DNA of 50,768 nt, the filler included, from Basidioascus undulatus (Eukaryota): the NCBI GenBank assembly GCA_000826855.1. It is 3 parts of 3 records of this genome, joined end to end, with 100 filler letters (N's around TTAATTAATTAA, not from the genome) between each part and the next. Parts side by side here need not be neighbours in the genome. Positions count along the whole stretch, not along the records: positions 16,983 to 33,828 come from JTLS01000560.1; 2 more parts are not named here. One strand, given 5' to 3'. Every line of letters starts with the position of its first letter. Position 1 is the stretch's first letter. The translations under genes were made by a program, and so were the position numbers. Below, one piece after another: positions 10,677 to 34,675 of this stretch. The notes under the pieces are model-generated. The model had not been told where the DNA came from and searched no databases. It was given only the letters and a program-made list of their open reading frames with translations.

Positions 10677-12107
10677 TCACCACATCTTCTCGCTCATGGA
10701 CTCCTTACTTGGGCTGACAGGCGACCGAGAGGACGACGAAGACCACTCGACATCACCGCGCCAAGAGCGTCGACGACGGTGGCGCATGCGTTGTCTCCGC
10801 GCGATGACTGCGAAGGTAGCCGCGGCGAGGACCAAGAGGGAGAGTGGCGCGAGGAGGGCGAAGTACGGTTTGAGGAACTCGATAGACTGTGAAGAAGGGT
10901 AATATGTTTAGCTTCAGGTTGATATGAAGGAACACCAACCGTATTCAGCAGACGCACCTTGCCCATCTGCAAGATCAACTTCGCGTCATTTCGGTGCCAG
11001 GAGGATGCGCCGAGGTGTTCGAAAAGCGGAGTGGTGACATGTCCGTTTCTGCAGACCGATCACATTAGTAACTTTGTCAAATCATATCGATAAAACCTTT
11101 CACGTACAGACGATATTCCCAAGGTAGGACTTTCAGCTCGTTGTGCCGCGGGAAAGTGGCGTGCATAGTTGAAAAGAAGTGACAGCCTGCCACAAAAAAT
11201 CGCACACAATCAGCTCCGTGCGGTCTGACAACGCAGTTGAGGAACTCACCAGTCTTGAACATGTTAGTGATATATGCTGACCCGAACCATCCGAGATTAA
11301 AGCGTGACAGGTGGTGGACGACATGTTGGAAGAACGGGTGGTGCGGCTTTGCGACGATCTGCGGGGCCATTCGGCAGCTCTTGAGTACACTCTTCCGGAA
11401 ACACCGCCAGGTACTGTCTGAATCACAAACGCATTATTGACTCCGGTCGGCTGAGCCGGAGGAGTGACGAAGGATTGGGTGAGGAAGGGATCCAGAGGAA
11501 CCTGTCTGAAGGTCAGTGACGCACTGGACAGCCTCATAAAACCAACCTGAAACTCACCCGGCATGCCAAATCCAAATCCATATAAATTCCCCCAAACGTA
11601 TGCAGAACAAGGTATCGCAACACATTCGAGCGCATTATCTCTACAAAAACGCAGCTCCTTTAACGCCTCCTCGATGCCCAATGCGTGATCGATTCACTCA
11701 CCTTGCTCGTAGCCCCGGTACAGCGCGAACATCTCCTCTCCATAATACTCCCTCACAAACGCATCCCCAGTCTTGTCGGTCCAGAGCCGAAACTCCCAGT
11801 CCGGATGAAGCTCGACGCAGCTGTTGCGCGCGACCTCCCACGAGGGGCGCATAGCGAAGCCGGGTCCGAGCCGGACTTGGTGGATGATGCGCGGAACGAC
11901 CTCGGTGGCATTGGGTGCGGCGCGAACGTGCGCAAGGTTGAAGCCGTCGTGATCTCCTAGTATCGGAGAGCGGAGGAAAGGGAAAACGATGTAGGTCCCT
12001 CCGAGGAGGACGGTCGCGATGAGGCGGTCTCGGAAGACGAGGAGGGAGAGGCTGAGGAGGAAGAGGAGGGAGACGAGGAGATGTCGCCGTTTCGACTCTG
12101 ACTGCAT
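10677..12107 (-). CDS. Glycosyltransferase family 32 (MIPC synthase Sur1/Csh1-like mannosyltransferase), multi-exon
   Basis: N-terminal TM, VPRIIHQ, HPDWEFRLWTD, MRSNVLRYLVLHTFGGIYMDLD (DxD), KPHHPFF, FEHLGASSWH and a C-terminal TM, ending SEKMW*. Confidence 0.85.
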
Positions 12108-16882: not shown

Positions 16883-16982
16883 NNNNNNNNNNNNNNNNNN
16901 NNNNNNNNNNNNNNNNNNNNNNNNNNTTAATTAATTAANNNNNNNNNNNNNNNNNNNNNNNNNNNNNNNNNNNNNNNNNNNN
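16883..16982. other. Artificial contig linker (44 N + TTAATTAATTAA + 44 N)
   Basis: Six-frame stop spacer flanked by equal N runs, 100 bp in total. Confidence 0.97.
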
Positions 16983-20495: not shown

Positions 20496-22947
20496 TCACC
20501 GCTTGAAAGGTTGTTGGACCTCTGTGAAGTCCGTCGGTCGCGCGCGTTTGACGCCGGCCATCGGTCGTCGTGCGCCGTTGACGGGGAGGCGGTCGTAGGG
20601 GGAGTCCTGCCCAGGCGGCTGTTGCATTGGGAAGGGGTTCTGTGAGGCGTTCTAAGTACAACGTTGCGGGTTGAACTGGAAGAATGGAAGTCAAGCGCAC
20701 GATGGCCGGAGGTCGGTAACCGGGCTGGAAGCCACCGCGGAAGCCTGCGACAACAGACGGCTCGGTGTTTAGAATAACAGAGTACTAACGGCTTGACAAC
20801 ATCAGAACGCACCGTTGGCCATCATCGGGTTCATATTACCCATACCCATACCGCCCATGCCCATGCCGTAGCCGCTCATGATCGGGTTCATCGCGCCGTA
20901 CTGCATCATCATCTGGTGCTGCTGTTGAGCTTGCTGCATTTGCTGTACGAAAGGCTACTGCATCAGTATCTACGAGCAATCAGTAAAGCACCCAGTCTCC
21001 GACACGCACGTTAAGCTGGAGAAGCTGCTGCTGAAGCATCATTCGTTGAGGCGGCGGGAGCTGCGAGGAACAACATGCGTGTTCAGCGACAATCAACTGA
21101 GCTCACACCGACTGAAAACCGTACGTTCGGGTTTTGCAGCATCTGCATGAGGCCGATGGCGGTAAGTTGGGCTTCGGAGACGGCTGGACCAGTCGGAGGT
21201 TGGGGACCGGAGAAGGTCTGCGGCTCGGGCGTGGCGTTCTTCGGACCGGTGGGTGGGGTGGCGGCGGACGGGCCAGTGGGCGGAGTGCCCTTCGCAGGCG
21301 GTGTCTGTTGCATCGTTAGCGACATGCGTAGCGGACATCGTCGAGAAACAATGAGAAACGAACCGGTTCCTGCGTGGCCTCCTTCCCCGAGCCATCATCC
21401 GCGCTCTCGGCAATCTTGGTCTCGATATAGTCCTTGACGCGCGTGTTCGCCTCGGTGTCGGGAAGGAGCTTGTCGAGCGAGCCGATCTTCTCAGCGCACT
21501 GCGGGCAAACGAAGTCGTTCTCGAGGAGATGGCTCTGGATGTGCTCCTCCGAGTAGCTCGTCCCGCAGCACGGCGTCTTGACGGGCTCGCGGAGAAGCTT
21601 GTTCGACAGCGGGTCGACGAGCGACGGATCGTCGGGAATCGTCTCTCGCACGTCTGCGGCGGTGAGCGCCTTCGGGCGAGTGCGATGGCGCTCCCAGGAA
21701 GCCCTAACAGAAAGAATGGCAGATCAGCGAATGGCAGCAGTGAGGGTGTAAACGAACACGAAGAAACGTACGAGTCGGGCTGCGCAATGACATGGCTACC
21801 GTCGGGCGTGATCATGACGCCTCGCCCGGCCGAGCCCGCGCTGTCCACCGTCTTCAGGAAGCTCTTGGGAATACCGGTCGTTCGCTTGAACCGCGGCTTG
21901 TTCTCGAAGTCGGGATTGCCGTTCGTGGGGCAGTCTTGGATCCAGTGGCCTATACGCCGAACGGCCGTGAGCACAGAAGTAAACATTGAACCAGAGCGAA
22001 ACCGACACACCCTTCTCTCCGCAACGGTAGCAAATGTAGCCCGGCGGCGTCGGCGTGACCTTCTCCGGCTCGCGCGGAGCGTACGGCTTCCGGGTCTGGG
22101 GGCGAGGATTGTTGTAGATGGGAGTGGCGCTGAAACGACAATCACGCCGTCGATCAGCATTAGGGACGGCACGACATTGCCTTGGAAAGTAACGCACTGA
22201 GACATGTGCTCTTGGGTCTCCTGCCATTGCTGCTCGGAAGCGGCGAACATGGCAGCAATCGCGTCTTGCTCGTTACCGGGGGACACAGAGGAAGGGGGGG
22301 CAGAGGAGCTCTGGAAGGGGGTCAGTACGGCCGCCTTGATTGGCGAGAAAAAGGCCGGCGAAACAGCACGGCTTAGAGAGACGAACGTAAGAAGGCTTCG
22401 CAGGAGGGGCAACATCGTCTTTTCCATCGAACCGACGCGACATCGAGGCCCGCCCAGAATGCGCGTTCCACCCACCACCACCGCCGCCGCCACCACCCCC
22501 CGCGCTCCCCGGTCCCCCTTCCCGTCCTCGAAAGCCCGGCTCGACGCGGCTGTCGGTGCCGCTGCCGGCGGCGTTGGTGTCGGCGACGTATCTGGCAGCG
22601 GTGCCTCTGCCGGGCTGGCGAGGCGGTGCGCGGCGTACGAGGACAGACGTCGAGCGGGGGATCATCTCCTTGTCGTCCTTGTACTCTGTTCAGCAAGAGA
22701 AATAAACGCAAGAGTCGGCCCACGTTGACGAGCAATCATGCGCAAGGGCACAGGACGGGGAAGGATGGGACTGACCTTCCTGGCCGGGTGAGTCGTGCTG
22801 GAGGACTAAATCGAAGTCGGTGCCCTTTCCCATCTTGTTCTGGATGATGATCTCGCGCTTGAGGTCAAAGACACTCATGGTCGTGCCGTCGAAGTTGACT
22901 CGCGCGGGGGTCTTTGAGCTTTTGAAGCGATAGTAAATCGAGCCCAT
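20496..22947 (-). CDS. MPE1: Cleavage/polyadenylation factor Mpe1/RBBP6 (DWNN + zinc knuckle + RING/U-box-like)
   Basis: IYYRFKSSK...FDLKREII (DWNN), PPPGYICYRCGEKGHWIQDCP, KRTTGIPKSFL, VKTPCC...FVCPQC. The 3' end is approximate. Confidence 0.9.
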
Positions 22948-23489: not shown

Positions 23490-24542
23490 ATGACCCGCTT
23501 GCTCTCGCTCTCGCTCCTCCTCGTCGCGGCGCACACCGCGTCCGCGCTGCACTTTTACATGCAAAGCGACGAGAGAAGGGTGCGTTTCACGCAGCGCATT
23601 CGTTGTCGTCGTCAGACTGCTCACAAGGTGTTGACCTCCCTGTCGCTCCTGCAGTGCTTTCTGGAAGAGCTCCCGAACCACACGATGGTCGTCGGTAGGT
23701 CGTGCACATCTTGTGCTGTTCCACGCTGCGCTGCTGTGTCTGTACAACGGAGGACTGTGATCGAAGATAGCGCTGGGTGGGAGGTGGGAGATGGGAGCAA
23801 GTGGACACATGCGCCGGGAGTCTCCGGGCGTCTTTGGGCACCACGGACGCTGAGGGGCGAAAGCTGACCCGAGAGGGCTCGCGCTGGCAGGACGCTACAA
23901 GGCGGAAGACTTCAACCGCGAGGAGCAGAAGTGGTACGTCAACCCAGAAATCGGCATCCAAGTACAAGTCGAGGTCTGTCCTTTTCTCTTTACGCTCCTC
24001 GACTTCCCGTCATCTTGGTGCTCACACCGATCCGGCTGCGCGCTGCAGGAAGTTGCCGATTCGCACGTCGTCGTCAACACGCGTGGGCCGGCCGAGGGCT
24101 CCTTCACCTTCACTTCGCACGAACCAGGCGACCACTCCATCTGCCTGTCGTCGAACGCGACTTCGGGCTGGTTCGAGGGCGCGCACGCTCTCCGCGTGCA
24201 CCTCGACATCGCCGTTGGCAATGTCAAGCGGGACGATTCCGTGGACAAGGACCACATCAACTCCTTGACAACTCGTGTAAGCAACTATTCTATCGGGTTA
24301 AGTGATTGTGCTTACCTTGTTTGTCATCGGCACAGATCCGCGACCTCAACCAGAAGCTGGACGATATCCGCAAGGAGCAACAATTCCAGCGCGAGCGCGA
24401 GGTCGAGTTCCGCAATCTCTCCGAGCAAACCAACAGCCGCGCCATATGGTGGTCGCTCATTCAAATGGCCGTCCTTGCCGCAACGTGCTACTGGCAGGCT
24501 ACCCACCTCCGCCGCTTCTTCAGCGCGAAGAAGCTCCGGTAA
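23490..24542 (+). CDS. p24/emp24/gp25L family cargo receptor (p24-alpha, Erp1-like)
   Basis: Signal peptide, LHFYM...CFLEELP, GSFTFTSHEPGDHSICL (GOLD domain), QREREVEFRNLSEQTNSR, TM, and C-terminal FFSAKKLR. Confidence 0.92.
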
Positions 24543-25032: not shown

Positions 25033-26624
25033 ATGGTGCTGGTCGACCTCGGTCGGCGCGTCGAAGCAGGCCTCCAACGCTTCTTCCAGCCGGGCTTCAT
25101 GGACGACGTTGAAAGGGTCCGTCCGTTACCGAATTGCCGTTCATGCGTTCTAATTTTCTTCCGCATTGCACAGGCTGTTGATGGGCTTCTGAAGGAGATA
25201 TATTCCGGTCTTCTCGAAGCTGGCCTGAATACGAAGCTCGCGGGCCAGCTCCGGACCAAGATCCGCGCGCAGGCGCTCGCTCGTCTGAACGACGTGGCCC
25301 CGGAACGATCACCGGTCGAGGCGGTGGAGATCGTGTACAAAGTACGTAAACTAATTCGGGGTTTCGACGCGGCCGGGGCTGAACACGGTCGAGCAGGTCG
25401 TGCTTGACGAGCTTGCCGCCGTGCTGGAGGGCGGGCGAGGGGCGTACAAGCCGAAGACGGGCGTCGTCACCGTCGTCCTGCTCACCGGCTTGCAAGGATC
25501 AGGCAAGACGGCTACGTCCCTCAAGGTAAGTTCTTCTCCGACTGGGATCCACGGCGCGAAGACGGGTTGACACTGTCATGCGCGGGCAGCTCGCTGCTTA
25601 TTACCAACAGCAAGGCTACAAGACAAGCTTGGTCTATGCGCATACTGCCCGCGCCGCCCGATCGGATAAGATAAAGCAGAACGCGGAGAAGGCCAATGTA
25701 CCGATTTATTTCGGGTAAGTTTGAGCACTCCATCAACCTCTCGTAAAGCTCAAGTCGAGCCCTCGTGTTCTCTCGCAGCGATGCGGAAGCGGACTCCGTG
25801 AAGATCGCGTCGGCGGGTGTGGCGCAGTTCCGAAAAGCTCGTTCTGAAGTGATCATCGTCGATGCCGTCGGGCGGAGCGCGCAGGAAACTGCCATGCTCG
25901 AGGAGGCGACCCGAGTCGGCAAGGCCGTTAAGTCAACGGCGACTATGCTGGTGGTAGACGGTACCTCCGGTGCGTTTAGCTTTATGCGCTGTTTGTCCCT
26001 TCAAGAGTGATGCCTGAACAAAGTGAGCAGGTTCACCGGTGAGGGGTCATGTCAAGACCTTCAAGAGAACCTGGGAGCACGGCGCGGTCATCGTCACCAA
26101 GCTTGACGCTCAGGCCAAAGGTGTCGGTACAGTCTTTGCGTAAGTTGTGTCGTTTGCGACCTTCTTTTTCGCCGGCTCACTTTTCTCCACATAGCGTCGC
26201 CGATTCTCGAACGCCGATACTCTTCACGGGAACGGGCGAGCAACTTGACGACCTCGACCTGTTCTCTCCGCGACCCTTCCTCGAGAGCGCGCTGGGCATG
26301 CGTGAGGTCTCCGGCGTCAACTTCGGCGTCACGGTCGGCAGCTCAAACCCGCGGAAGGTGTCATCCGAGGAGTCTCCGAGAGGGCCGCCCAGCGCTGGAG
26401 AGCAGATCGATGAGAACAGGAACACAATCAACACGTGCGTTGTTGTTGCCTGTTCTTTCTGCCTTGTGCGCTGGGCTCACGAAGGTTTTCTGTTCCCACA
26501 GGACCATCCTCGGTTCAGGTACAGATTCTCTCGGCCGCGCGTGCCGCACGTCGTTCTGACAGCCTATACTGACACAGCACTTTCTTCAGACGACGGCCAT
26601 GAAAAGGCATCTCGGCGATTCAAG
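25033..26624 (+). CDS. Divergent SRP54-like NG domain with no M domain; frame continues into RIF1
   Basis: Seven in-frame exons give MVLVDLGRR, LLKEIYSGLLEA, GLQGSGKT, LAAYYQQQG, KQNAEKANVP, IIVDAVGR, VIVTKLD and ILFTGTGE...PFLESALGM, colinear with the SRP54 N and G domains. Similarity stops at LGM (26298-26300). Confidence 0.85.
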
Positions 26625-29600
26625 GTGCGTCAGGCGCTCTTGCACCAACGATTGCGAGCGCTGACCGCGTCCTGTCTTGCCCTCTTCCTCGACCTCCCTT
26701 CGTTTATTTGGACATACAGGGGCTGCTCGGTCCAGCTCGCTCCTCAAGAGGCGTCTGCTTCTCGCCGGCGTTGCACACTTTCCACCCTTACGACCCCGCT
26801 CAACGCGTCGGCAGCAGCTCGCCCGCGCTTGGCGCAGCGCCGAGCGCCGTCAAGCGCGCGAAGAGCATTCTCAAGAACATCGCCGAGCCCAGCATCGTCG
26901 GGCGCGATTGGGAGGAGGGAACCCGCTTCAACGCCCGCGCAGGTCGGCCAGACGACAACCACGCGTCGGGCAATGGGGGACGGCGAGTGAGCGGCGCGAG
27001 CGGCATGCCCGGACAGGCGAAGAGTGGCCCGTCGACGGAGGCGGGAACGATCTCCGACCTCGCCGACCCGCTGAAGGTGCTCGTCACGTCGCTCTCCTCG
27101 CTCGTCGCGCCCGACATCCAGGACATCGAGGAGGCGTACGTCACGCTCGCAGTGAACGTCAAGAACCAGTTCCTTCTAGCTCCAACCCCGTCGTCGGGCA
27201 TATCTGCCACCTCCGCCATCATACTCAAGACTCACGCCTCCGATCTCGCACGCTGCATCCAGCGTGACGTCCATCGCATTCTCGCTGCCCGGTCTCAGCC
27301 AGCTAGCTCGCCGACGCCGACGCCGATGCCAACGCGGTCACCAAGGCCGACAGAGTCTCGCGACCCTCTCGGCCAGGAGCTCAGCAAGCGCGGCGCCACG
27401 AGCGCGCCCGCTGCGCCGCCGCCGGGGACCACAGCAGAAGAGGTCAAGAAGCGCAAGAGCGAGATTGCGGCGGGCATGGCGGCGCTCAGAGTGCTGGGCA
27501 TCATTTGGTTCTTAGAAGCGCCTGGGGAAGGGAGACAGGGTATCCGACTCTTTTCCGGTCAGTCAACCACGTTCCATGCCCGACAAGGCCGTCGTATCTA
27601 ATCTTCTGCTCAAATGGCAGACGATCACTCCCTTTCACTCATATCCACTATCCTCGACGCTCACGCGAACCCTTCCCTTCCGCTACACCCCTCCTCGATT
27701 AAGCGCCTACACGCTCTGACACTCTGGGCTCTCTCCTCCTCTCGCCTTCCTCACGCGCTTTACACACCTTCGGCAGACCGCATCGCCGCCGCCGTCTCGC
27801 GCGCTTTTTCCTCCCAGCATGGATCGGTCCGTGCCGAAGCCGCGGCGCTGATCGGCGTCCTCCTTCGGCGCGACGCTGAGGATGGCACTGGAGTATGGGT
27901 CGAGCGATGGACAGGCTTTCTTCGACCTGTCGTGCGAGCCACGTACGACCCGGCGATCGGCGTACGCGGCAAAGCCGTGGGCGCTCTCGGCGCTCTCGTC
28001 AAGGCTGGCCTTCAGTGGGCGGACGGAGATCTCGAGCGCGGCAGAACGATCGACAGGATGGGCGAGACTGTCGTGGTATGTGGTCGCGTTTAGCTGAAGC
28101 GGAATGTGGGCTGAGGTGAATTATTGCAGAGCATGCTGCGAAGGCGGAGAGCGGGGGCGGCGGGGAAGGAGATCGACAATCTCGATGCGGCTTGGAAAGG
28201 TGTCCTTGATACTTCAAGTACGTCCTTCCGATACTTGCTTTAAACTGCCCGAGATTAATGGCTGGCACGTCGTGCAGGTCCCTACATCATTTCGTCGTGG
28301 GCGGTTTTGATCGCGATCATTGGCCGCTCGATCAGCTCGATGGAGGATATTGGCGTTCTTCTCAAAGCTATGGAGGTATGTCTTGTCCCTCTTCATGGTC
28401 TTCACTCGGCCGGCCGATGGTCCTGATTACGCTCGCTCCCCAAGGCATGCCTCCGACATAATCATCCGGCCGCTCGCGCGCTGATCTCCCTCGCCTGGTC
28501 GCACCTGACCTTTGCCTTCCTCTGCGTACGCGTTCCCGGCGCGCACGCTCCCGACGCGCCTTACGTGCTCCGGCCAAAACGCCTGAAACTCATGGCGCAG
28601 ATCGTCGGGTGCATGATGGCGCAAATCGACGAGCCGCGGCTGGACGAGTCGACAGGGAGATGGAGCCAGCGGACAGCCCCGCAGGCAAGCCTTCTCGCAA
28701 GCCTCGCGAGGGCAATCATCAGCCTCATCTACGCGTTCTCCGGCGCTGCGCTCGCTGCCTGTGCGGAGGGGGGCGCTGCGCACGTACGGACGACCGCGTC
28801 GTCGCCCGCCGTCCTGGATGCAGTTCCGCCCAACGTTCCGGATTCTGATGTGGACGCCCTTGGCCGCACTCGCTCAGCCGCAGCGGTCCTCGTCCCCGCA
28901 TCCCCTTCACCTTCTTCGTCCGACCCACCGCCGCCGCCGCACCTGACGACACTCGACACGGTCTTCGACTCGGTCGTCATGCCTCACCTCCCCTATCTTC
29001 TCCGCATCAATTCCGCCGACTCTGTCAAAGCCGATGGCTGGACGGCGCTCGCGTCGATTCTCTCTCCCACCGCCGAGAACGCCTGGCGTCTTGACCGCAT
29101 CCTCTGCCCCGACTACCTGAACGGCAAGTTCGCCAACCCTCCGTTCGCAGCGCCGTGGTCCACCCCGGATAGCGTGCGATCACTCCACGAAGCTGTCGAG
29201 GCGTCTGCGGCCACCGCCGTTGGCGCGGCGGAGCTGCCGCCATGGGGGACGGAGTGGGTGCTTCGGCGGTTCGGGGATTGCTTGAAGCTCGTTCGTGAAG
29301 CTTTGGAAGGGCTGCGCGGCCTGACTTCCACGGAGGGCGAGTGGGAGAAGGATGTCGGCGGAGGATTGCTCCTTCCGGTAAGAGCTCGACGTCGACTACC
29401 TTCAAATGATCTGCTGCGACTAACGCGCCCGTTGCCGTCACTAGTCCCCCGTTTCCAACGCCTTCCGCTCCCTCCTCGTCCACCTGTCCTCTCGGCCGTC
29501 CTCGACTCATCTTTCATCCCTCACCTCCTTCTTCCTATCCTACCTCCACGCCGACGCGTCCACCTTCCTTGCGCCAGAGCAAGCGCGGAAACTCGGTCCA

Positions 29601-32345
29601 GCTCAGATCGAGACAGCGCATCTCGGCATTCTCGCGCACCTCGTCGATGTCGCGCAGGACGTGCTGGGGCCGGCGACGTTGGCGACGGTGAAGATCGATG
29701 TCGACGGCAAGACCGAGAACTCCGTGGTCGCCGCCTTCCTAGACGCCACGCTCCGTTACGCATCCTCGCTCCCCGTCGAGCTGTTTGCGTGCAACACCGG
29801 CGGCGCCGGCGGTGCGGACGGCGCACGCAGCGGGAGCGTATCGACAACGCTTTCGCGCCTGGCAGCCCGCCTGCTGCGACTGAGCATGGTGGGCAACGAG
29901 GGTGTCGCGCTCCTGGCCGACGTCTCGAAATGGCTGAGCCGAGCGCTACCCCAGTCCGAGCTGGAAGGTCTGCACGCACAGATCTGGAACGCCGCCGGTA
30001 TGGACATTCACTGTGCTCCACAGCGATGTCGCGCACTGACATGACTTCTTCGCAGCGTCCGAGTGGATCGAGCGCCTGTCGCTGGGCCTCCCGCAGCCAG
30101 CGGCGACATCCGAAAGCTCGCGGAGGCTCGAGCTCCTCCAGGAGCTGCTCAGTGTCCCGCTTCGGCGGCCATCGACGCCGCCGGACAAGGATACGCTGGC
30201 GCTCTGGGAGCTCCTCCTGAACCGTTCGGTCACGCTGGCTGCCGACAAGCGTCTCAACCCGACTTCGGAAGTTCTCGAGCCAGTCGCGAAGGCCATGCTC
30301 CTGAACGAGTCGCTTGAGCAACATTCGACGTAAGAGCTGACGATTTGATCGGTTCCTTTTCTTTCTCACATGGAGGCTGTCGCAACAGCAACGGCAAGAC
30401 CATTGCGTACTACCTCGCGCTCCTCCTTCCGCACGTCGAGATCAGCACGGTCAGCACGGTCGCGAACGACGAGCACCTGCAGGAGCAGCTCCCACGCGAG
30501 CTCTTGGCCAAAGTCGGCCAGACGCTGGACGGCCTTTACGCGATGCGTCTCCCCGCGCCCGCGGTCGAACTGCTCGGGGCTGTGGCCACCTTGCTGCAGC
30601 GGCAGGTTCCGAGTTCGCTCCAGCTCGCCGCTTTGCACGAGCTTGAGGTCGGCGTGGCCCGCTGGTTGCGAGACGAGGAGGCGTTGCTATCCCGCGAACA
30701 GTTCGATGTTGTATGACTGCTCTTGTGTCGTGATTGCTCCGCCTATGCTGAACTCTAGTTCTCTCCGCAGGTGGTGTCTTTCTTCGAGCAAACTCTCGAA
30801 CGGCTCACCCACTCGTTCGCTCCCGACACCGCTACGCTGGAGCGGCTTTCCGACTTCATCGTCGCCGGCTGCGCCCGCGTGGATCCCGACCTGGGCGCGG
30901 ACGGCCTACGCAGCGTTCGTGCGTTCACGAAGTTCTGGCAAGCGACATACGCGCGCGCCGAGAACGTTGAGTACCCGGAGGCGGTCGCGCGACTCCTCCG
31001 CGAGATACTGCATCACGACTCGTCGCTCGTCAATGCACCGGCGCTAGTCATGGCGAGTCGACATGACAAACTCTTTGCTGGGCCACCGTACTGATCACGC
31101 CCGAATTTGGGAGCAGGACACTCAAGATTCGCTTTACAACCCCCATCACGAGCCGAGCACGCCAGATGATGCGTCGTCTCGCGTGTCCTGCGCGTCGGGC
31201 AAGAAGGCTCGCAAGAACAAGCGGAAGCAGAGTGCAGCCGCTGCAACGGTGGAGACGGGCACGGCAACCACGTCGCTTCACGCGGCGCCGGAGGAGTCGA
31301 TGCAGGTGGATGCAGCGGAGCAGGGCAAGGGCAAGACGAAGAAAAGACGCAAGTCGGGGGGAGTTGGTACGCTGCTTTGCTTCTCCGCCAGTCTTCATTT
31401 TCTCAAAAATTGAGGAAACAGGGTCTCGCCAGAAGCGCAGGACGACCAAGTCGAACGGCGCTGGAGCGGACATGCCGCGCGAGGAGAACGACGACGATAT
31501 CGACGACCGTCTTGTTGTCGAGTCCCAGCTCAGTCAGACCACGCCCGAGCACGAGCTCGCGTGCGACGATCAAACACGCGCCGGCTCCGTCAGGAGCACG
31601 CCGCAGCACGACTCGTCCGAGCGAGCGCCAGAGGCGCACCTCAGCAATTCGGTGCTAGGCCTGGTCGGGCGGGCAGCGGTCGGCTTCGGCGCGTTGCTCA
31701 GCCCTCGCAGGTCGCGCAGTGCAGCGCACGAGTCCTCAATGTCGCCGGCACTCAAGCTTGATGCACCGACATTTTCCGGCCGCGAGTGCAGTCAGTCCGC
31801 GCTCACTTTCTTTGCGCTGGTGATTGGCTAACTCAGCCTTTACTCGACAGTGCGAACCTCCTCGTCACCCTCTCTTGGCGCTCCGCTCGCTTCCGGCAGT
31901 CAGCGGATCTCGTCGCCCGTCGACTTGCCTGATCTCGCCCCGTCTCAAGCCGCCACAGCATCCAAGCGGGTCAAGCGGTCATTGCGGGGGGCCGAGCTGC
32001 CTTACAGCGGTCGGTTGTCTTCCTGGAGTTACCTATGTCATGGCTGATGAGTATACTCCTTCAGACGATCTCGCTGGTGAGGAGCCTTCGAGCCCAGCGG
32101 ACGAAGCTCTCAAGCGCCGCTCGCAGTGTCCAACACCCGGCCAACGTCCTCCCACCAGCGCGGCGACCAGGCTCCCTGCCAAGACCGACTCCTCCTCTCT
32201 CCTTCTTGACGCGATCCGTTCTTTCGAAGATAAGAAGCGCTCCGGCTCACTTACGCCGCGACAGCTACTCAGGTTACAGCGGCAGTTGCAGTGGCTTCAA
32301 GCGGAGGTATCGGAAGAGCTGGAAGGCTTGCTGTCGGGGGAGTAG
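26298..32345 (+). CDS. RIF1: Rif1 telomere/replication-timing regulator (HEAT-repeat Rif1_N, PP1-docking motifs); true start uncertain, possibly fused to the upstream SRP54-like domain
   Basis: RGVCFSP (RVxF-type, 26747-26767) then KSILK (26861-26875), the fungal Rif1 order. Long helical-repeat exons, a disordered basic/acidic region and a short helical C-terminus follow. Stop at 32343-32345. Confidence 0.75.
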
Positions 32346-32639
32346 TAGCTTGGGAGGACATCTAGTTATCTGCAATTTCTTACATTTCATGTTCCATTTC
32401 ACTGTACTGTCATCACCTGATTCGGTCCGTGCATCCTCTTTCTCACACATTGAGCACATTTTCGGATGTTGATGGACCAGCCTGCTGCTCACACTTTTTG
32501 GGAAACGGACCGCTTTCTAGCAGTGTTTTGTTCATTGCAGCCTTGACTTGTTTGCAGCGCGGCCGTGGAAGTTGACCAGTACCCGCGCATACCCGCATAC
32601 TGAACAGATGGGATCTGCGTGAGTCTACCTGAGTTGGAA

Positions 32640-33828
32640 CTCAGACCTTTTGAAAAAAAGGGATATGTATAGTTGAGGATCTATCCTTTAATTTGTTGCC
32701 TGGATTTGAATAGTTCAGGTTGCAGTGCAAGCCTGCCTGTGTGGACCAGAATTATGTCGTAAGTGTGAAACAAATTCAGAATATTACTGAAATGATCCTC
32801 ATCTTCACTTTCTCACAAGCTGTGGGGGTTGACAAGAGCATGGAGTCCACTGGATGCCGTACAAAGCCACCTCATGGTGGTTTCTGTTTTGTGTCCGTGT
32901 GCAGAAGTACATCAACATTTGGCACCTCAATCCTTTATGTCTCGGGACTGTTAGTGCCCTCATCTCCAATATTGTCACCTGTTCAAATGGCCAGCCATCC
33001 ATCACAGTGTGACTGGGTACTCACACCATCTCCAAATGGGCATTTGATTGTGCTGCCTGTTCTGCAGTGACATGCCCTGCAGTGACCCCTGGAGGGGGTA
33101 TATCTTTGCCAGCATGTCCAGTCACAGTGTTCTCATGTGATGAAGAGAAACACTGACCAAAGGATGAGCCAGGGAATCAAGCTTCCAGCTGCCTAATAAA
33201 GCTGGATCAACAGGGGGCACCCAAACTAGTGCCCCTTCTCTACCCCAGTGGACATGCAGGAAAGAGGTGTTGTTGGAGGTCTCTGGATTGTTGTGGGATG
33301 AAGAAGTGAAGGCAAGGATGGGTAGGAGGGATGTTGGTTGATTGGGAAGTTGGTGGAAGGTGAGGAGTTCACAGGTGAACTCTGACCATTTGGGTAGGTG
33401 ATTCCACAGTGGCAGGTGCCTCCTCGCAGAATGATAGATGTTTTTGAAGTAGATGTTGCAATCCAGATGATGTGATGGTTAAGTGGGTTGTAGAGTCAGA
33501 ACACCTTGGACTGTATTAATCAACAAAGGCGCACTTCCTGTGAGGGATGAGTTTTTGGCATGGTTTTGTCACAACATGCCTCTGGCAGCCATTCAATGCG
33601 AGGCAGTCCCAGGTGCAGAGGTGCATGATGTGCAGTGCCTGACTGCTCCAGACACCCTCAGGCATGCTGCCCTTGAGCACCTTGTGCAGCAAGCAGTTCT
33701 TGACATGGACAAATGCACTGCATGAGCCTCGTGCAGAGTGAGAGAGTGTCAAGAATCCGACTGGGCAGGGCAGACCACAGCGGGGGCTACCAGCTGACAG
33801 GGCTTTATGGTGGCAGGGATAGATTATG
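32640..33828 (-). mobile_element. Degenerate Ty1/copia LTR-retrotransposon relic (integrase C-terminal region at about 33440-33716), CpG-depleted
   Basis: Minus strand reads VKNCLLHKVLKGSMPEGVWSSQALHIMHLCTWDCLA...KCAFVD*...KVF*LYNP, matching the copia pattern KNRLPHxALxGxTPxExWxGxxPxxxHLRxWGCLA...KCxFxGY...KxYRLYDP. Stops and frameshifts are present and boundaries are approximate. Confidence 0.75.
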
Positions 33829-33928
33829 NNNNNNNNNNNNNNNNNNNNNNNNNNNNNNNNNNNNNNNNNNNNTTAATTAATTAANNNNNNNNNNNNNNNN
33901 NNNNNNNNNNNNNNNNNNNNNNNNNNNN
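33829..33928. other. Artificial contig linker (44 N + TTAATTAATTAA + 44 N)
   Basis: Identical structure to 16883-16982. Confidence 0.97.

Positions 33929-34675
<747 letters not shown>

Follow-up and report, generated by a model that had tools for sequence, protein, structure and literature searches.

Rif1 guides PP1 to origins of replication, to telomeres and to DNA breaks; the nuclear positioning of Rif1 is an active question. In SRP54, the methionine-rich M domain binds SRP RNA (SRP, signal recognition particle) as well as signal peptides. The bacterial and organellar proteins FlhF and chloroplast SRP54 have kept their catalytic motifs, and neither of them is known to be fused to any protein of chromatin or telomeres. 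FlhF is mentioned in a published abstract as a third paralogue, and in fungal Rif1 the PP1 motifs are reported to be placed N-terminally (PMC3410773). In this study, we analysed a stretch of 50,768 nucleotides (nt) from the Basidioascus undulatus assembly GCA_000826855.1, made of three joined parts and hereafter called the window, in which a diverged front half of SRP54 (the N and G domains, N+G) is found immediately 5' of a Rif1 gene, in phase with it and on the plus strand (25033-32345). A preliminary description of the locus had proposed an in-frame fusion. Its domain identities and splice geometry are borne out; the single protein is less secure, since it needs a 17-nt exon followed by the donor GTACAG. 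One SRP54(NG)-Rif1 polypeptide, probably accompanied by an N+G-only isoform, is the reading which we put forward tentatively and with somewhat less than even confidence. The sequence permits both a fusion and a stop followed by a restart.

The upstream part of the locus is traced by Pfam and PDB alignments to the N+G part of eukaryotic SRP54, as had been claimed, and the earlier coordinates and arithmetic (ATG 25033, methionine of the LGM motif at 26298-26300, last frame end 32345) were right. Read through seven exons, the frame meets no stop and gives an SRP54-like N+G protein of about 298 codons, which has the SRP54-like N-terminus MVL.DLGR, carries the P-loop GLQGSGKT at about 25487-25510 and ends in ...ALGM; the six introns are 55-64 nt long and phase-consistent. 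The Pfam SRP54 GTPase domain (PF00448) matches exons 3, 4, 5 and 7 at the colinear profile positions 2-20, 21-60, 65-124 and 165-195 of 196, and two of these exon pieces exceed the 22.7-bit cut-off (24.4 and 40.9 bits). SRP54_N gives a sub-threshold match on exon 2 (17.7 bits, E 0.0042), under its cut-off of 22.4 bits and on the piece of 56 amino acids (aa) only; the read-through piece 25033-25341 gave no SRP54_N match. Eukaryotic SRP54 chains are the top PDB matches for every exon tested. Identities to solved SRP54, counted on the printed alignments, amount to 20/59 (about 34%) in exon 5 and 18/41 (44%) at the end of the G domain. In a search of exon 5 against longer proteins, none of the 105 candidates had E ≤ 10.

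In the PDB alignments the P-loop GLQGSGKT, TKLD and GTGE are all kept, and LICADTFRAGAFD of human SRP54 aligns to LVYAHTARAARSD in the module. Because these three motifs are kept, the module probably still binds guanine nucleotide. Relative to human and fungal SRP54, ADTFRAGA is changed to AHTARAAR, with a histidine at the aspartate position of the human stretch, DTSGR to DAVGR (VDTSGRH to VDAVGRS against human SRP54) and DGHA(K/R)GGG to DAQAKGVG. On account of these three changes, and given the SRP GTPase mechanism, hydrolysis is expected to be impaired and SRP-receptor-type pairing to be altered. Intact GTPase motifs II and III and a GGG loop after TKxD, which characterise canonical SRP54, are not present in the module, and it does not appear to be the functional SRP54 of this organism, brought here in part by a misjoin. 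Moreover, since this diverged copy keeps six phase-consistent introns, has no stop and shows coding periodicity of its GC content (0.67/0.44/0.72 at the first, second and third codon positions of the N+G exons), it seems to be translated and under selection rather than decaying. No Pfam match to the M domain (SRP_SPB) was obtained in the frame pieces scanned across 26043-27601, and the usual binding of SRP RNA or signal peptides would presumably be closed to the module.

Concerning the downstream gene, a core Rif1 exon of 151 aa was searched with phmmer against 1.84 billion representatives and found one protein at E ≤ 0.001 (P0001, E 2.1e-4, 27% identity), an Amanita protein whose UniRef name is Rif1 N-terminal domain-containing. 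A search with P0001 led to 220 relatives, and the best 120 were used as the agaricomycete Rif1 set; 117 of these 120 are named from mushroom-forming genera. A local profile was built from 45 of these proteins; it scores 75.0 bits against our spliced model (E 1.4e-25 for a single target) in three colinear domains at hmm positions 94-292, 429-483 and 849-1092, which cover N-terminal repeats and a C-proximal region, and the profile alignment begins at residue 125. In the agaricomycete set (best 120 of 220), SILK is present in 117 proteins at a median start residue of 58, and RVx[FW] precedes it in 100, at a median residue of 26 (range 20-100) and with a gap of 15-37. The window Rif1 has the same order, RVxF and then SILK, with a gap of 39 residues. 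On this colinear profile and the N-terminal PP1-docking motifs, the downstream gene is accepted as a diverged Rif1, in agreement with the preliminary description. The latter had held that a missing Rif1_N match would speak against the proposal. Pfam Rif1_N (PF12231) indeed gave no match at E ≤ 0.1 on seven exon pieces, scanned unspliced and piece by piece, but this is uninformative because only one of 20 agaricomycete Rif1 proteins scanned reaches the model (24.7 bits against a cut-off of 23 bits). Searches with other parts gave little: the first Rif1 exon found nothing at E ≤ 0.001 among 8,000 candidates when compared with longer proteins, a profile of 25 agaricomycete Rif1 proteins found no Rif1 chain among solved structures and only two weak importin-4 matches, and a profile of 96 agaricomycete Rif1 N-termini, run against all frames of 25900-27200, found the SILK stretch only (E 0.1-0.3). 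One metagenome locus (L001) was matched by the first Rif1 exon over 22 low-complexity residues and was judged spurious.

The junction between the two parts carries a coding signal which extends beyond the SRP54-like homology. SRP54 likeness fades about six residues past LGM, and the PDB alignment reaches residue 41 of the exon. In 26301-26434 the GC content at third codon positions (GC3) of the SRP54 frame is 0.80, as compared to 0.53 and 0.53 at positions 1 and 2, and for this reason translation appears to run past the G domain up to the strong donor at 26435. This signal surpasses chance, unlike the mere continuity of the frame. At the other end, GC3 is 0.79 in the Rif1 frame of 26720-27004, which indicates that the RVxF/SILK exon is translated, so that a start upstream of it would be needed.

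Between these two coding segments, removal of introns of 67, 59 and 95 nt with inclusion of exons of 17 and 47 nt gives one frame from 25033 into Rif1. The SRP54-like frame is open to 26624 irrespective of whether 26435-26501 and 26519-26577 are both removed or both kept, and the intron 26625-26719 (GTGCGT...GCTGAC...ACAG) joins it in phase 0 to the exon with RGVCF and SILK, both as described previously. Donors were scored by their matches to CAG/GTRAGT, out of 9. Donors 26625 (7/9) and 26519 (6/9) lie within the range of 4-8 of the 13 reference donors scored, and the 67- and 59-nt introns within the 54-69 nt range of 14 other introns. A single long intron 26435-26577 would measure 143 nt, outside this local range. 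Two CTGAC branch-like sites lie 5' of the acceptor ACAG at 26577. The fusion would likewise remain in frame, and need no micro-exon, with an acceptor at 26518 or 26524, but neither is the first AG past the branch-like site. Concerning the start of Rif1, no ATG stands in frame from 26301 up to the RVxF exon if donor 26625 is used; the earlier statement that the LGM methionine is the nearest in-frame methionine holds for this donor and fails for donor 26629 (GTCAGG), by which ATG 26599 comes into frame with RVxF. Moreover, no 60-nt window with a GC content of 45% or less occurs in 26195-27580, and such stretches do follow the stops of Rif1 and of the emp24 gene upstream of the locus. The claim of no spare intergenic space thereby stands, in that no terminator-like AT-rich stretch separates module and Rif1. 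The case for a fusion rests on the quality of the splice signals and on there apparently being too little space to fit a terminator and a promoter. The features are listed in Table 1.

Table 1. Features of the SRP54-like/Rif1 locus and neighbouring frames (positions in the window; donor scores out of 9).
Feature	Position	Strand	Basis
SRP54-derived N+G module	25033-26300	+	translation, Pfam, PDB alignments
N+G exons 1-7	25033-25116, 25174-25341, 25397-25525, 25590-25714, 25779-25969, 26031-26139, 26195-26300	+	gene model
Tail/linker continuous with exon 7, coding in the SRP54 frame	26301-26434	+	GC3, frame plot
Intron of 67 nt; donor cacGTGCGT (7/9), branch-like site CTCAC, acceptor CACAG	26435-26501	+	
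Micro-exon of 17 nt, required by the fusion reading only	26502-26518	+	
Candidate intron of 59 nt, deciding step; donor cagGTACAG (6/9), acceptor ACAG	26519-26577	+	
Exon of 47 nt in the fusion reading; holds ATG 26599-26601 in another frame	26578-26624	+	
Intron of 95 nt; strong donor aagGTGCGT (7/9), phase 0 with the SRP54 frame	26625-26719	+	
Second donor tgcGTCAGG (4/9), 91-nt intron; puts ATG 26599 in the Rif1 frame	26629	+	
First large Rif1 exon; RGVCF 26747-26761, SILK 26864-26875, then start of helical repeats	26720-27557	+	GC3, profile
Rif1 body exons	27621-28075, 28130-28217, 28278-28375, 28445-29377, 29445-29997, 30056-30329, 30389-30710, 30771-31046	+	signal-weighted exon chaining
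Rif1 C-terminal disordered part, roughly modelled; stop 32343-32345	31117-32345	+	GC3 frame plot
emp24/gp25L/p24 (GOLD) family gene; ends 490 nt 5' of ATG 25033	23854-24542	+	Pfam, E 5.5e-23 and 2.6e-10 on two exon pieces
Open frame of 522 aa; weak zinc-knuckle hint, under cut-off	21093-22661	-	E 0.0042

Several observations weigh against a fusion. A frame without stops, or the fact that some in-frame path exists, is weak evidence, because stop-free frames and paths are abundant in this GC-rich window: open runs of 108 codons or more are found at 11,275 of its 100,888 frame positions (11.2%) and runs of 230 codons or more at 1.8%, and the Rif1 frame can be reached from exon 7 by 10,365 stop-free GT-AG paths if up to three introns of 45-150 nt are allowed. 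The frame plot reveals no coding signal in any frame of 26435-26720, and the signal in the Rif1 frame resumes only from about 26790. The 17-nt exon is unusual, the donor that follows it (26519) has an A at position +5 where all 14 reference donors of the locus have G, and the 47-nt exon has a GC3 of 0.44 in the fusion frame (7/16 codons; binomial P = 0.0075 against 0.75). A donor of the GTCAG type, as at 26629, is used elsewhere in Rif1 (27558, GTCAGT, backed by the profile alignment). With the first intron as the only one removed, TGA 26557-26559 terminates the SRP54-like frame, and 13 codons further on, in the same frame, ATG 26599 leads via donor 26629 into Rif1. RVxF then starts at residue 20, the lowest value among the 100 agaricomycete Rif1 proteins that have both motifs. 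The Rif1 part also appears to be full length already without the module. An SRP54 Pfam domain was found neither in 20 agaricomycete Rif1 proteins scanned nor in the precomputed Pfam column of the 120 (best of 220), and searches with the first Rif1 exon, the Rif1 core exon and the SRP54-like exon 5 yielded no relatives close enough for a comparison of the linker.

Together these points make it a credible alternative, to which we give a chance only slightly below that of the fusion, that the SRP54 N+G module and Rif1 are two separate reading frames. The first would end at TGA 26557-26559 (with 26435-26501 removed) or at TGA 26598-26600 (with 26435-26577 removed), giving an N+G protein on its own, about 350-390 aa in length, and the second would run from ATG 26599 via donor 26629, giving a Rif1 with a normal short N-terminus. 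Both could be served by overlapping transcripts, with a Rif1 promoter in the last exon or intron of the upstream gene, or by a read-through bicistronic RNA with re-initiation. Such arrangements are not exotic, as fungal read-through and re-initiation have been documented: in one agaricomycete, read-through polycistronic RNAs are reported for 717 of 9,073 transcribed loci (PMC4503453), and re-initiation in fungi is reported to be supportable by short intergenic sequences (PMC10352335). The shared frame of stop, 13 codons and ATG, the place of RVxF within the agaricomycete range, the lack of the otherwise invariant +5 G at donor 26519 and the misfit of the 47-nt exon all suit two frames. So does a pyrimidine-rich tract at about 26440-26500 which by eye resembles the CT-rich tract 5' of ATG 25033. 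Against this alternative stands donor 26629, which scores 4/9 and lies 4 nt 3' of a 7/9 donor that would frameshift Rif1; a synonymous change could abolish this competitor, yet the competitor is present. Furthermore, stop and ATG are only 39 nt apart, as compared to 490 nt between the emp24 stop and ATG 25033, with no AT-rich stretch resembling a 3' end, and both CTGAC sites and the ACAG at 26577 would be without a role if no intron ended there.

Readings other than a fusion or two frames are together unlikely. Rif1 might be expressed alone from an internal transcription start site at about 26052-26297 and be translated from the LGM methionine at 26298 with the splicing of the fusion, the N+G exons being rarely or never joined to it; this we regard as improbable. 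ATG 26298 would be the first ATG for all start sites in this interval, intron 6 (26140-26194) is pyrimidine-rich, and the coding signal of 26301-26434 fits equally well. The intact, phase-consistent and codon-biased N+G frame would, however, be left without a stop of its own, any transcript from the promoter at 25033 would continue to code for either the fusion or the stop isoform, and RVxF would come to lie at about residue 79, a position exceeded only by the longest of the 100 agaricomycete cases. That the locus is an artefact of assembly, or that a duplicated, dead SRP54 fragment lies 5' of Rif1 without a protein product, is highly improbable: the catalytic motifs are altered and there is a single genome to go on, but a misjoin would bring canonical SRP54 and not a copy of about 34-44% identity with altered motifs, no repeats lie at the junction, and a neutral relic so diverged would not be expected to have escaped stops, frameshifts and the loss of splice sites over about 298 codons and six introns, nor to retain a GC3 of 0.72 next to 0.44 at second positions.

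For the fusion, which we tentatively prefer, we envisage one transcription unit from a promoter 5' of 25033 encoding a protein of about 2,000 aa. The first 300 or so residues would be the diverged SRP54 N+G, followed by a disordered linker of about 70 residues and by a complete Rif1 starting just before the RVxF and SILK motifs that dock PP1. The join would be made by splicing out 26435-26501, 26519-26577 and 26625-26719, the second of these through the weak donor. Because this donor (26519) is weak, the same pre-mRNA probably also gives rise to an isoform ending at TGA 26557-26559, which lies inside the candidate intron and ends the SRP54-like frame if the intron is retained; this isoform would consist of the N+G module alone. 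Regarding function, the kept and altered motifs allow the speculation that N+G acts as a nucleotide-dependent docking or dimerisation module beside the PP1 site of Rif1. In its full form, which we hold to be quite unlikely, the proposal is a Rif1 of about 2,000 aa whose nucleotide-binding, hydrolysis-impaired N+G would form pairs with itself or with a GTPase of the SRP-receptor type and so tether or dimerise Rif1-PP1 in a GTP-dependent manner, for instance at the endoplasmic reticulum (ER) and nuclear envelope, with an N+G-only product arising as well, depending on whether donor 26519 is used.

Some further features of the locus deserve mention. Two donors lie 4 nt apart at 26625-26634 (GTGCGTCAGG), the upstream one fitting the SRP54 frame and the downstream one ATG 26599; their alternative use would switch between the fusion and a stand-alone Rif1 reading. 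Removal of 26435-26577 as a single intron would bring the SRP54-like frame to a stop at a TGA overlapping ATG 26599 (ATGA, 26597-26601). The agaricomycete Rif1 proteins P0001-P0120 share a near-invariant N-terminal LPTPP...(K)EN(R) directly before RVxW, in which a KEN-like triplet and a TP site are seen by eye. A look-alike of this start (PP-x7-ENR at 26376) was rejected, as the pattern was also matched in 64 of 300 shuffles and in 38 of 126 other chunks of the window. The 3' third of Rif1 was modelled roughly, with 170 stop-free exon combinations; the GC3 frame plot indicates frame changes near 31047-31116, 31367-31421, about 31791-31850 and about 32010-32064, and across four alternative 3' models the Rif1 part alone measures 1,623-1,632 aa. 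Unweighted exon chaining returned one gene from 25033 to 31831 with many implausible introns; it is biased to fusions and was not used as evidence. The search for repeats at the junction returned none of relevance, and Rfam and tRNA scans of the window returned nothing.

The GC content of the window is 0.49-0.64 in 2-kb steps, and short GT-AG introns are numerous, as suits a fungus; the Rif1 relatives nearest to it among those detected are agaricomycete. Just past the Rif1 stop the GC content drops (32346-34000; 0.49 in the 2-kb step, 0.32-0.45 in 60-nt windows) and the frames look non-coding; this part may be 3' untranslated region plus an AT-richer intergenic or repeat region. Four runs of N, 44 nt each, at 16883-16926, 16939-16982, 33829-33872 and 33885-33928 form two pairs with 12 bases between the members and are filler between the joined parts.

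An SRP54 paralogue without an M domain and with altered catalytic motifs is unusual under a fusion as well as under separate frames. As judged by titles and abstract openings, a full-text literature search gave no link between Rif1 and SRP54, and a literature search gave no M-less or pseudo-GTPase SRP54 paralogue. If the fusion is true, Rif1 would carry a GTPase-type switch derived from protein targeting, a combination of domains not reported before, and this would suggest a nucleotide-gated placing of Rif1-PP1. If the frames are separate, the M-less paralogue with its altered motifs still stands, and the locus would be an unusually tight gene pair whose outcome is set by one weak splice donor and by two donors 4 nt apart. 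In either case it cautions that, where DNA is rich in GC and in introns, a fusion is not proven by open frames and in-frame splice paths alone.

As compared to agaricomycete Rif1, the window Rif1 is alike in the order of RVx[FW] and SILK, in the colinear profile and in its length of about 1,630 aa, whereas it is strongly diverged, is without the LPTPP...KEN start and, under the strong donor, has no in-frame ATG just 5' of RVxF. With eukaryotic cytosolic SRP54 the module shares the MVL.DLGR start, the G domain, the P-loop GLQGSGKT, TKLD and GTGE and probably also the N helical bundle; it differs in having no detectable M (SRP_SPB) domain downstream and in its altered catalytic motifs. FlhF and chloroplast SRP54 place an SRP54-type N+G fold outside classic co-translational targeting, as is proposed here. 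With the fungal read-through polycistronic transcripts and re-initiation bicistrons described in PMC4503453 and PMC10352335, the locus has in common two same-strand frames, almost no spacer and no obvious terminator. The published cases in PMC4503453 have multiple stops in all frames between their open reading frames, whereas here there is a single TGA that one weak intron could remove.

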